Part shown: positions 34,801 to 37,800 of the stretch, piece after piece
Layout: the number at the start of each line of letters is the position of its first letter
Position numbering within the stretch: position 1 is the first letter of the stretch
Assembly (NCBI GenBank): GCA_041288045.1
Contig: JBGGMM010000095.1
Coordinates: forward strand, 1 to 38,720
DNA: 38,720 nucleotides
Direction: 5' to 3'
Source of the DNA: Pseudobdellovibrionaceae bacterium
GTDB lineage: Bacteria > Bdellovibrionota > Bdellovibrionia > Bdellovibrionales > Bdellovibrionaceae
Program-made: the position numbers

Positions 34801-37800
34801 CTTTGGTGGCGCATATGCAAAATGGCGAAATTCAAATCCTGGAACACCAGGGACGTGTGGATGTGGACTCTTACAAAGCTTCGGTGACAGTGAAAAACCT
34901 CAACGGCGATTTGGATCTAGAGAATTTCGCCGGAGAATCGGTTGTGGATAAGGTCAAAGGATTTCTCTCGCTCAATCAAGGGGCGGGCAGCAGCAAAATC
35001 ACCGGTAGCTCAGGTTCTATGCAATTTGATTTGGTGAAGGGCATTTTGAATGTTCAAGCTTTTCAGGGGCGAGTGGAAGGGCAGACGCAAGAAGGACCCG
35101 TGAATGTCAGTCTGGCGCCGGAAGCAGATGTGAATATCAAATCCCAAACAGGTCGAGTGACAGTCAACACGCCTTCCGGTTCGGGTGCTTTTCTCAATCT
35201 GCTCAGTCAAGAGGGGGAGATTCAAGCTCCCAATTATATGAAAGTGATTCGGGATGGCAGTCAGAAGTCCTTGAAGGGTCGGCTGAAGGGTGATTCGCAA
35301 AAAGGCAGTGTGGTGGTGAGAAGTCAGGCGGCCTCGATCATCATTCGATAAAACTGGCGATAAATTTTGAAAATGGGGGGTTGACAGCCTCTCTGAATTC
35401 GTTCAAGCATGGCTTCACTATGGCTAAAGCGTCAAAAAAACCTGTGAAGAAACAAGCCCCTAAAGCTGCAGCAAAAAAAGCGGCTCCGGGGAAAGCAAAA
35501 ACCCCAGCAAAAGCAGCAGCTTCGGCAAAATCCAAAGCAGCAAAACCGACCAAAGCCGCTCCGCAAAAAAGCCCTTTGATGAAGGCAGTGACAGGGGCCG
35601 TCGGAAAGTTTCTGGGAAAAGATAAGCCAGCCAAGCCTAACGCAAAAGCCCAAAAACCAGCAGCCGCTGCACCAATGCCGGCTGAAATGAAAAAAGACAA
35701 AAAAGCTCCTTTGCCTAAAAAAGACAAAAAGAAAAAAGGCAAAGAGGGTTTTGATATGGAAGAAGATGATCTTCTCACCACCGATGATGACATGATCGGT
35801 GGCGAAGACATTCCAGATCTTTCTGAATTCGATGAAAACGAAACAGAAGAGATCGAATCTGCTGATGATGACAGCGACGAATCGTCGGTTGTCGCTGAAG
35901 CCAAGCCCACAGACGGTGAAATCGTGCTCACCGATGCCGAAGGCCGCAGATACTGCCGAGTTCGCGACTGTGATCAAATTTCAGCGGTTGAAGGTTACTG
36001 CCGCTATCATTACCTGCAATTGTGGAAGAAAATCCAAATCCGCCGAAAAATTCTGGCTGACGGAAAGCTCGAGCGCTACGTGGATGAACTCACATCCCGC
36101 TATCCAGATAAATTCTTAGAAATGATCCGCAAAGACTTGCGCACGGAAAAAGATTTCCTCGCAGCCATCGCTGAACTCGAAATCGACGAGTCCGCCGGTG
36201 AAAACGAATTCGAAGACGAAGCACAGAGCTACGTGGACGAAATCCGCGGCATGACCACTGATTCCGGAATGACAGAGGAAGAGGAGTTTTAAACTTCTCT
36301 TTTATCTAAAGGGCGCCCTCGCTGAGCTCTTGTTGAGAGCTTGATTTACCTTGGTTCGAAATACAGGGCATCAGCGAATTGGAAGCTGTGCTGGGATTTT
36401 GTTGGAGAGCCAAAAAGAAATTCTCACTGCAATTTTTGAGATCACTGTTCAGCATTCCGTGGCCACCATTTGGAACAATCAAAAGTCGGCGGTTCATGTT
36501 TTTCTGATTGCTGGCGTGATACTGGGCTTGCCAGGTTGGGGTTGCGGGATCGTTTTCACCTTGAAGATAGATTACTGGGGCAGAGATCTGATAGTTTTTT
36601 GAATCGTAAAGATGAATCTCTTCTGGTTTGGCGTATTTGGCGCAATCATGAATGAGAGGGGTAGCACTCAGTTTTCCGTCAAAACTGAAGTTTTCAGTTT
36701 CGGCATTGCTCTCTGGAAAAAGTTCTCGACAGCCGATAATTCCATGAAACCACATGCGATCCGGAGAGTCTGGGGCGGTGACTTTGGATTTAAGACGCAG
36801 AAGAATCTGGATCAATTGCTTGGGATTGTCGACGGCTAGCTGAAGAAGTGGCTCCCAGAGTGATTCTCCCCTGGAGTCTTTTCTCTGCATCATTGTCAAT
36901 TGAAGGATCGTTCCCATTTCTTCAGCCGTGATTTGGTGTCGTTGAATCATTCGTTTGATCAGTTGATTGAAAGCGGCGACAACTCCCGAATCGACTTTGG
37001 CAGTCAAGAGAGACCACTCTTTCGCAAAACCTTGAATCGCTTGAGCGTTGGTCAAAGATTTCCCGGCAGTCCCATCCAGAATGACAGCGCGTGGAGCTTT
37101 CCCCTGTTGAGATAATTGCGAGGCTAAAATAGTTCCAGGCACAGTTCCATAAGAGACGCCGAAAACAATCACATCGGAAGCGCCTACAGATTTCAAGGCC
37201 AATTCAATATCCTTGGCCACTTGTTCAGAATGGGTTGTGTTCCGAAAAGAGTTCATGTCTTTATTTTGATTCACGCCGACGAATAAAGGATCGGTTTGAA
37301 TCACACCGAAGTTTTTTGGAATATTGTATGCCTCACTCATATTGATTTGAGTTGAAGAGCCTCCTGGACCACCGGGAATATAGACAACAGTTGGAGCTCC
37401 ATTTTGGGCGGGACGGTATTTGAATTTGTAGGGTACAATGACAGGATTTCCCTGATCGTTGATCAAAGTGCGTTGAAGGGTGCAAATTCCTGTTGGCTCA
37501 CACTGTACTGAGGAGTCACCGCTTTGGGCCATCCCATTTAATGAGAGGAAGAGAAAAATAAAAAATAGGAGAAGAGGCTTTTCAAGTTGCATCTCAGAAT
37601 GAATTTTCAAATTAAGCGCCAGCTGTCTTGCCTTGGGTTGGATCTAGAGCCCAGTAAAATCGATAAAGCAATTTAAGGTGATCAACTGTCAAAAAAATCG
37701 TCAGTGAGAGTCACTGGCTGGAACCTGCTTTGACATCAAATTTCAGCGTGCTATCCTTGCCAGATGAAAAAGATATTCTTCATTCTTATTTTCTCAGTTT

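Follow-up and report, generated by a model that had tools for sequence, protein, structure and literature searches.

Portable Lys/Ala-Rich Tails on Nucleoid-Enriched Proteins of Bdellovibrionales and a Candidate Adaptor Family Conserved in Bdellovibrionota

Bdellovibrionales appear to attach disordered Lys/Ala(/Pro)-rich polycation tails to many unrelated proteins, and the counterparts of such proteins in Bdellovibrio bacteriovorus HD100 co-sediment with the nucleoid. Here, one such gene, g01191, was analyzed in a window of 38,720 nucleotides (contig JBGGMM010000095.1 of a Pseudobdellovibrionaceae bacterium), together with the other tailed proteins of its genome. We favor, at a probability of about 0.55, the reading that the tails are portable DNA tethers, that the tailed SWIB protein is architectural, and that g01191 is a nucleoid-bound adaptor or regulator and no bulk condenser. 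As in Streptomyces TopA, HupS and DdbA, from which this step is extrapolated, the tail would bind DNA without sequence specificity and keep its protein on the nucleoid. By analogy with plastid SWIB-4, the SWIB protein, which is likely a major nucleoid protein, would act architecturally beside the histone Bd0055. The function of g01191 would reside in a phylum-wide, single-copy core (zinc finger, helices and acidic, aromatic-ended tip) whose likeliest role is docking on a component of the transcription or DNA machinery; the tail would be a DNA tether particular to certain lineages.

Architecture and Conservation of g01191

The gene g01191 (35420..36292, + strand) is an open frame for a 290-aa protein, and its HD100 ortholog, Bd2092 (CAE79936.1), was mapped by gene order and an identity ladder, with the thiolase gene (33144..34358, − strand; Bd2095 ortholog) and the upstream DUF4097 beta-solenoid gene (34374..35351, + strand; Bd2093 ortholog) as anchors. 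In-frame orthologs throughout ruled out an assembly artifact. On the + strand, the protein opens with a Lys/Ala/Pro-rich tail (aa 1–110, 35420..35749; 34 Lys, net +29) and continues into an Asp/Glu block (aa 111–165, 35750..35914) that is largely restricted to the source genome's own family; net charge is −25 over aa 111–177, +2 over aa 178–255 and −13 over aa 256–290. What had been described as a Cys-rich end is more precisely one putative zinc finger, C179-x4-C184-x9-C194-x2-H197 (35954..36010), which opens a conserved domain of ~110 aa and is its most conserved element. The finger is followed by a conserved helical region (36011..36184), with an L-x2-Y-x3-L-x3-YP motif and no match to a known family, and by an acidic C-terminal segment (36185..36289) comprising a helix predicted at low confidence, an acidic tip and a final Phe (Phe or Tyr in the core generally).

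The ligand positions C179, C184, C194 and H197 are near-invariant among 45 sequences (one member, L057, is without the finger), R195 and W202 are invariant in the alignment, and this Cys3His pattern suggests that the finger binds zinc. The finger was modeled at a pLDDT of 92–95 within a model of pTM 0.40 overall, in which the predicted helices of the core did not pack on their own, and a homodimer prediction with zinc scored 0.11 (mark, 0.42), which speaks neither for nor against a dimer. Residues 4–187 resemble the basic-then-acidic N-termini of actinobacterial sigma factors (E = 1e-4), a compositional match that implies no homology.

The core was found in 60 of the 61 genomes of the order, in single copy in each, and in 134 of 151 Bdellovibrionota genomes, mostly in single copy; when five genomes without it were searched again, three yielded finger-only orthologs adjoining miaB or guaB. 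The final residue is F, Y or W in 142 of 148 distant representatives, and the whole core is net acidic (~−10) in most members. The tail, which ranges from 7 to 341 aa, varies freely in length and sequence among relatives; of 54 loci, 12 retain the core with a short tail or none, and in several families the core persists without any tail. The middle acidic block is present in just 10 of 54 loci and 29 of 148 distant representatives, and because it is not conserved, the self-neutralizing switch put forward in the initial annotation is unsupported.

Comparison of the core with Pfam and NCBIfam gave no family match, including helix-turn-helix, other DNA-binding families and DksA/TraR, and the best hit among PDB sequences reached an E-value of only 0.19. 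Foldseek returned nothing at E ≤ 0.001, with A20-type fingers at the top (E = 0.6); VIA-align gave no clear match to a winged helix or any other fold, with a best Z of 3.8 and, for an A20 finger, a Z of 3.4 at an rmsd of 1.6 over 31 aa; an Atlas search recovered unnamed clusters only. Such a lack of matches is no proof of a novel fold. The finger weakly matched 8 of 14 members of phrog_5351 (best E 5e-4), phage HNH proteins that carry a finger at their N-terminus. The proteins of five relatives had no exact match in the protein collection.

Directly 5′ of the ATG lies a conserved promoter-like element (35381..35410, + strand; TTGACA at 35381–35386 and TCGTTCAAGCAT at 35399–35410), and a TTGAC-like hexamer occurs at equal distance in 46 of 74 parsed loci; a consensus promoter scan did not call the element. 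No Shine–Dalgarno sequence was found ahead of the ATG, and the mRNA is possibly leaderless. A terminator-like hairpin (36323..36343, + strand) stands 3′ of the stop codon, one of four such sites found against 2.0 expected by chance. The conserved neighbors of g01191 are miaB (12 of 20 loci in the order, 7 of 20 in the phylum), guaB/guaA and thiolase, none of them a chromatin gene.

The Suite of Tailed Proteins

A composition scan for 30-aa windows with at least 9 K and at least 25 of K/A/P/S/T/V gave 19 matches among 15,629 ORFs of this genome (46% GC). These included the five proteins with N-terminal tails, namely g00050, g00145 (SWIB), g01191, g02296 and g01819 (GroES2), as well as RecA, TopA, UvrA, bL17, bL21, the E1 subunit, g01517 and a sigma-32-like protein, so that all N-terminal, C-terminal and internal tails of the initial annotation were recovered; the coordinates it gives for g00050, g00145 and g02296 also translate as it described. 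Among 2,688 non-overlapping ORFs, where g02296 was masked by an antisense ORF, 14 matched; as controls, none of 10 whole-proteome shuffles gave a match, and within-protein shuffles gave 0–2. The tails contain K/A/P-rich repeats of the bacterial H1-like (Hc2/HctB) type, and the Pfam profile of the linker histone H1 globular domain matched none of g01191, g00050, g00145 and g02296.

The description of the orphans as basic-acidic holds for g01191 and for g00050 (C4:19140-19589), in which an N-terminal half of pentapeptide K/A repeats precedes an acidic half (net −2 for the protein), and fails for g02296 (C183:9893-10384; net +13). As a query, the acidic half of g00050 matched 2 of 41 genomes of the order, and syntenic orthologs of the gene occur in three named Bdellovibrio genomes. 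The g00145 product (C12:20975-21331) is a stand-alone SWIB protein (PF02201, 104.2 bits against a cut-off of 25), and of 20 phylum loci fetched, 18 were parsed, of which 15 show an H1-like motif beside SWIB with at least 9 Lys in 30 aa. Nor is g02296 a featureless orphan: a profile of its C-terminal domain, run against the PDB, hit C-terminal domains of UvrD and nothing else (E 0.002–0.003), and an Atlas lead reached 0.81. The PcrA/UvrD Tudor family PF21196 did not match g02296 itself and matched 2 of 27 relatives weakly (best E 0.0019). The Tudor domain of UvrD, which this candidate domain may resemble, is described as an RNAP-binding module (PMC8318588); the g02296 domain stands alone behind an H1-like tail. 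A 2012 proposal that the repetitive N-terminus of GroES2 is a mis-annotation (PMC3464611) looks unlikely, because each of the four genomes examined encodes the predicted tail in frame.

Comparison with Known Tail Systems

In Streptomyces, TopA, HupS, Ku and HrdB carry lysine-repeat tails, which bind DNA in tested cases (PMC5714199). The tails described here are similar in placing K/A/P repeats on many DNA-acting proteins within a lineage, a sigma factor and topoisomerase I among them, and, as in Streptomyces, several unrelated DNA-acting proteins are tailed while tailless homologs exist elsewhere (here for g01191 and SWIB). Unlike the actinobacterial repeats, they are mostly N-terminal, occur also on GroES, the E1 subunit and ribosomal proteins, and belong to a genome of 46% GC. 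Streptomyces DdbA, which joins H1-like and DksA-like domains and condenses DNA (PMC3643593), is the closest architectural analog of g01191, with an N-terminal H1-like tail and a C-terminal regulatory domain; however, the g01191 core has Cys3His instead of four Cys and no DksA/TraR match.

The stand-alone SWIB domain and adjacent H1-like stretch of g00145 recall plastid SWIB-4, whose H1-like motif adjoins SWIB and which compacts nucleoids (PMC4154389). They also recall the stand-alone chlamydial SWIB proteins (Wcw_0377 and CT460), of which the Waddlia protein binds genome-wide (PMC6426960); unlike the plastid and chlamydial proteins, g00145 occurs alongside a histone-fold protein of comparable abundance. 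In composition, the N-terminal half of g00050 resembles Chlamydia Hc1/Hc2, Burkholderia H1-like proteins and Pseudomonas AlgP/PhaF, but half of g00050 is acidic, and the scores stay far below the cut-offs of the Hc2/HctB profiles (PF07382, 13.5 and 11 bits against a cut-off of 40; NF038053, 20.7 against 80). Because such tails are known in other bacteria (PMC5714199, PMC9239181 and PMC3643593), the H1-like layer claimed as new would be new for Bdellovibrio and not for bacteria.

Nucleoid Enrichment of the HD100 Orthologs

Orthologs were mapped onto the attack-phase nucleoid proteomics of Hocher et al. (2023), which rank 2,235 proteins and derive entirely from HD100, a genome different from the source. 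The claim of a portable module is supported, and all five orthologs of the N-tailed proteins are abundant and enriched 12- to 72-fold in the nucleoid fraction (log2 3.64–6.17): SWIB (CAE79230; log2 3.64, abundance rank 5), GroES2 (5.08, rank 91), Bd2092 (4.06 or 17-fold, rank 114), the g02296 ortholog (3.79, rank 156) and the g00050 ortholog (6.17, rank 161). The g01517 ortholog, mapped later, reached 3.56 (rank 72), and the histone Bd0055 itself 3.36 (rank 2). By contrast, cytoplasmic neighbors were negative (thiolase −1.26, scoA −1.57, pyruvate kinase −1.0, map −2.32, tex −0.81, folD −2.27), and ribosomal-cluster proteins lay mostly between −1.3 and 1.7, unlike Bd2092, which ruled out g01191 as a ribosomal protein. 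In two paralog pairs the tailed member lies ~2 log2 units above the tailless one (GroES2 5.08 vs. GroES1 2.78; Tudor 3.79 vs. 1.9), and tailed bL21 reached 2.16 against −0.66 for tailless bL27; the similar values of tailless E1 beta (6.61) and tailed E1 alpha (6.92) can be explained by size alone. Among abundant proteins, values of at least 3.64, a threshold chosen after the data were inspected, occurred in 21 of 110 predicted cytoplasmic proteins and 110 of 316 overall (base rate from 320 of the 2,235 rows).

RNA polymerase is our leading, still tentative, guess for the partner of g01191, because the enrichment of Bd2092 equals that of the putative alpha, beta and beta′ subunits (4.01, 4.12 and 3.89) at ~0.4 copies per beta. 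The presence of a second tail protein with a UvrD-Tudor-like domain, g02296, is counted for the favored reading; counted against it are the tails on GroES2, E1 alpha and two ribosomal proteins, the equal enrichment of tailless E1 beta, the membranes in the nucleoid fraction, the non-chromatin neighbors of g01191, and searches that yielded neither a family nor a fold nor a partner for the core. The table of Hocher et al. (2023) places no DNA-binding flag on the tail candidates, the literature searched names none of the five as a nucleoid protein, and the papers searched describe no Bdellovibrio SWIB protein.

Alternative Explanations

The boldest claim of the initial annotation, that the tailed proteins jointly make up an H1-like layer and, with Bd0055, actively condense the chromosome of the attack phase, the basic-acidic ones being switchable condensers, is in our estimate unlikely. 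The joint nucleoid enrichment agrees with it, as do the compaction of nucleoids by SWIB-4, the expression of groES2 only late in predation (PMC3464611), and transcripts that, like Bd0055, are high in growth and low in attack phase (RPKM 551 vs. 7.4 for Bd2092, 594 vs. 0.4 for Bd3349 and, with both tags inferred, 2510 vs. 36 for Bd3054 and 9851 vs. 341 for Bd1337). This pattern is, however, common to many genes, including the metabolic neighbors of g01191. The summed tail lysines (~227 per RNAP beta) would cover ~1.5–9% of DNA phosphates, assuming 500–3,000 polymerases per cell. Apart from SWIB, which reaches architectural abundance at 62% of Bd0055 by iBAQ, every N-tailed protein is below 10%; Bd2092 is ~15-fold scarcer than the histone, and because the g01191, g02296 and g00050 orthologs stand at 4–7%, the small orphans are unsupported as bulk condensers. 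The poor conservation of the middle acidic block and the tailless cores of several families also argue against such a layer.

Rather improbable, too, is a lineage-wide polycation habit in which the tails serve polyphosphate granules, RNA or anionic membranes as ligands, or in which enrichment arises after lysis. Polycations can indeed adhere to DNA once cells are lysed, Pseudomonas AlgP has an H1-like KPAA tail that localizes to and spaces polyphosphate granules (PMC9239181), and the non-DNA carriers (GroES2, E1 alpha, bL17 and bL21), the free variation of the tails and the membranes in the fraction fit this explanation. Yet the g00050 and g01191 orthologs are among the most enriched at near-zero net charge, several carriers are DNA- or RNAP-related (RecA, TopA, UvrA, sigma-32-like and Tudor-like), and DNA binding is documented for lysine repeats and for Waddlia SWIB. 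We regard as very improbable that the g01191 core is a nucleic-acid-binding zinc-finger protein without a protein partner, either a DNA-site-specific regulator or an RNA/tRNA-linked factor, with its acidic segments as an autoinhibitory DNA mimic. The weak phage HNH likeness of the finger, the invariant R195 and W202 and the miaB linkage point in that direction; a single small finger, the net acidity of the core and the lack of a match to helix-turn-helix or other DNA-binding families point away from it.

Implications for Chromosome Packing in Bdellovibrio

A review of 2023 and a preprint of 2025 call the tight packing of the Bdellovibrio attack-phase chromosome unsolved, and both list only Bd0055, Bd3044, HU, IHF, Fis, Dps and SMC; according to the preprint, Bd0055 by itself leaves E. 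coli DNA uncompacted. As the HD100 counterparts of the tail proteins travel with the packed chromosome, these proteins are candidates for its organization, and the published proteomics already contains them, foremost SWIB. A distinctly doubtful extension is a three-part Bdellovibrionota chromatin of Bd0055, an H1-tailed SWIB linker partner of near-equal abundance and g01191/Bd2092 as an RNAP- or histone-binding factor; if it were true, the acidic aromatic tip and the H1-like tail of g01191 would link nucleoid packing with the shutdown of transcription in the attack phase. In any case, g01191 represents a previously undescribed, near-universal single-copy protein family of the phylum, and the tail-protein candidates can be tested in a laboratory strain that is harmless and genetically tractable.

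Lys/Ala tails and the conserved core of g01191

The gene g01191 (window positions 35420–36292, forward strand) is an open frame of 290 amino acids that by composition comprises a Lys/Ala/Pro-rich tail (residues 1–110, 34 Lys, net charge +29), an acidic block (residues 111–177, net −25), a nearly neutral stretch (residues 178–255) and an acidic end (residues 256–290). The initial annotation had listed it among a set of tailed proteins; translations of three other tail genes agree with its description, and its composition rule, when re-run, recovered every protein that it named, with a sigma-32-like factor as an extra match. 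The rule was matched by 14 of 2,688 non-overlapping ORFs and by none in each of 10 proteome shuffles; the Lys/Ala tails are genuine, beyond chance.

Across 54 g01191 loci (one counted twice), tail length ranges from 7 to 341 aa, a stretch with at least 9 Lys in 30 aa is found in 42 and missing from 12, and the middle acidic block (at least 15 Asp/Glu in 30) occurs in 10, nine of them from the source genome's family. Among distant representatives (148 of the best 150), the tail is present in 138 and the middle block in 29, and the last residue is aromatic in 142, nearly always preceded by an acidic run. The C-terminal core is thus of ancient origin, and the tail has been added on to it. The acidic-aromatic ending resembles the C-terminal tip of SSB, a docking element, and the SSB of the source genome ends in the same way.

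The C-terminal 131 aa gave a single match in 60 of 61 Bdellovibrionales genomes and matches in 134 of 151 Bdellovibrionota genomes (source genome counted in both), three of the latter having two. Five of the 17 misses were re-searched by profile, and three contain short finger proteins with an acidic end; two of these finger-only orthologues directly adjoin miaB and one lies near guaB-guaA, the usual neighbours of the family. At E ≤ 0.001, a profile picked out 796 representatives from 1.84 billion; named matches belong to Bdellovibrionales, Oligoflexia, or unclassified Deltaproteobacteria, Proteobacteria or bacteria, and one cluster in the Atlas database carries a mostly Myxococcota label. In 45 aligned cores, C179, C184, C194, R195, H197, Y198 and W202 (g01191 numbering) are invariant or nearly so. 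The predicted structure (pLDDT 73, pTM 0.40) has a confident finger followed by unpacked helices, and searches of Pfam, NCBIfam and PDB/fold collections matched the core to no family or solved fold. A small protein at L164 (G071:C14) has a related C-x4-C-x9-C-x2-H finger but another C-terminus, and may represent a second family of finger proteins in this phylum.

Immediately 5' of the g01191 ATG (window 35381–35420) lie TTGACA and a conserved TCGTTCAAGCAT element, with no Shine-Dalgarno sequence; a TTGACA-type hexamer stands at the same distance in 46 of 74 parsed loci, and the mRNA is possibly leaderless. In the surroundings, a charged, coiled-coil-like 558-aa protein (window 25344–27020; no Pfam match) adjoins the pyruvate kinase gene, a conserved arrangement seen in 35 of 135 loci, and a 216-aa protein (L108:10154–10801; no NCBIfam match) near the g01191 orthologue and miaB in 77 of 135, distant families included, is a second conserved unknown. 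Two family f15 genomes carry, 2–4 kb from finger-only orthologues, a putative RNA polymerase gene (L199:1065–1304, L200:2354–2599) that we take from its N-terminus to be omega-like.

Other tail proteins

The SWIB protein was found in 111 of 151 phylum genomes; of 20 loci retrieved, 18 were parsed, and 15 of these encode the tail. The domain family of g02296 occurs in 36 of 41 order genomes, its zinc-ribbon paralogue included, and its profile matched UvrD C-terminal domains only; the UvrD C-terminal Tudor module binds RNAP beta (PMC8318588). The paralogue (G000:C12:11419–11628), an N-terminal CxxC...CxxC ribbon joined to the same Tudor-like domain, immediately precedes a gene for a UvrD-like helicase in L146–L148 and is possibly a split-off helicase C-terminal domain. 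In three named Bdellovibrio genomes g00050 lies in conserved synteny, and its acidic half, used as a query, matched 2 of 41 genomes and none beyond the genus. The basic tail of g01517 (G000:C118:1779–2246, L185) follows a conserved domain of about 60 aa at the N-terminus, for which NCBIfam gave no significant match. The sigma-32-like factor (G000:C149:29801–30853, L019), absent from the earlier list, has an N-terminal Lys/Ala tail followed by acidic residues; it lies beside fliA and is probably Bd3314, which could not be deleted (PMC3464611). The GroES2 tail (G000:C149:4540–4980, L018) is in frame in four genomes, contrary to a 2012 proposal of a later start codon.

Nucleoid enrichment in Bdellovibrio bacteriovorus HD100

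The gene order pyk, CRP-like, scoB, scoA, thiolase, DUF4097, g01191, taken with Bd2093 as a beta-solenoid (PMC10482364) and Bd2095 as a thiolase (PMC7529429), leads us to infer that the HD100 orthologue is Bd2092. Supplementary file 9 of the attack-phase proteomics study (Hocher et al., 2023; PMC10627809) lists each HD100 protein's identity to a second genome; CAE79936.1, assigned to g01191, has 72.441%, equal to the value computed for the orthologue in a named B. bacteriovorus strain, and the neighbours agree in turn. Identity values, gene order and implied lengths likewise gave SWIB as CAE79230, g02296 as CAE78891, g00050 as CAE80819, GroES2 as CAE78154, g01517 as CAE78107 (adjoining folD; a further nucleoid candidate), E1 alpha as CAE78908 and bL21 as CAE81206; bL17 (CAE80724) was placed mainly by its position adjoining rpoA. 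The mapping covers 9 of the 14 tail proteins first listed.

The ratios are on a log2 scale, since the value of the histone-fold protein Bd0055, 3.36, equals the 10-fold enrichment in that paper. Log2 ratios (rank of 2,235) are 3.36 (2) for Bd0055, 3.64 (5) for SWIB, 3.56 (72) for g01517, 5.08 (91) for GroES2, 6.92 (109) for E1 alpha, 4.06 (114) for g01191, 3.79 (156) for g02296 and 6.17 (161) for g00050; bL21 has 2.16 and bL17 1.72. All mapped tail proteins, and likewise Bd0055, have PFAM_DNA_binding = 0, and the term SWIB is absent from the accessible text. Cytoplasmic neighbours of the mapped genes range from −0.46 to −3.34, except the protein after map (2.32). In the 320 rows of abundant proteins, a ratio of at least 3.64 occurs in 21 of 110 proteins predicted to be cytoplasmic and in 110 of 316 overall. 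All five N-tail proteins reach it, an outcome with a chance of about 0.0003–0.005 at a threshold picked post hoc. In host-independent cells, Bd2092 RNA ranks within the top 2% (row 3540 of 3584); it stands at 551 RPKM in growth phase versus 7.4 in attack phase, its neighbours changing in the same direction. Table S5B also contains abundant proteins with very high ratios: CAE81028 (10.9), CAE80804 (8.45), CAE80322 (11.8), CAE79278 (12) and CAE78053 (11.1).

Proposed DNA anchors and a proposed nucleoid-bound adaptor

The initial annotation had proposed that the tails form an H1-like condensing layer. The available HD100 data bear out the nucleoid enrichment of tail carriers. By iBAQ, SWIB stands at 62% of the Bd0055 level and every other tail protein at 4–9%, and summed tail lysines would cover about 1.5–9% of DNA phosphates, assuming 500–3,000 polymerases per cell. 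Tethers plus one architectural protein therefore fit better than a protamine-like coat, and a full condenser layer seems unlikely. Slightly less likely still, the tails may bind polyphosphate, for which AlgP offers a precedent (PMC9239181), or membrane, or the enrichment may be a lysis artefact, including binding after lysis. Evidence against comes from membrane proteins in the nucleoid fraction (medians 3.57 and 5.28), tailless E1 beta (6.61) and GroES1, enriched 7-fold without a tail; on the other side, GroES2 is enriched 34-fold versus 7-fold for GroES1, and ratios are lower in tailless controls (GroES1, 2.78; zinc-ribbon Tudor paralogue, 1.9; bL27, −0.66). In phage HNH proteins, the N-terminal finger bears a weak likeness to that of g01191 (best E 5e-4; 8 of 14 members); that the g01191 finger is a self-sufficient nucleic-acid-binding finger we consider quite improbable.

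Since tethers fit better than a coat, we read the Lys/Ala tails as probable portable DNA anchors. Precedents are Streptomyces TopA, HupS, Ku and HrdB with their lysine repeats (PMC5714199) and DdbA (PMC3643593), and, for SWIB as a nucleoid protein, SWIB-4 (PMC4154389) and Waddlia Wcw_0377 (PMC6426960). The polycation tail device itself is known.

In the literature searched, which covered few subscription journals, we found no description of Bd2092, Bd1337, Bd3054 or Bd0955/6, of these tail proteins under Bdellovibrio with SWIB, H1-like or histone-like, or of a signature zinc-finger protein of Bdellovibrionota. Two of these tags, Bd1337 and Bd3054, are presumed from those of their neighbours. 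The accessible parts of chromatin papers and reviews, some searched for SWIB, name none of these proteins. The use of tails by Bdellovibrio, the abundance of SWIB and the phylum-wide g01191 core family appear new to the literature.

SWIB is probably a major, architectural protein of the nucleoid, and the other tails would act as tethers. We read g01191 as an adaptor held on the nucleoid, whose core would dock on a partner. RNAP is the leading guess: in the available data, putative alpha, beta and beta' subunits, identified from position and implied lengths, have ratios of 4.01, 4.12 and 3.89, close to Bd2092, a level shared by much other sedimenting material.
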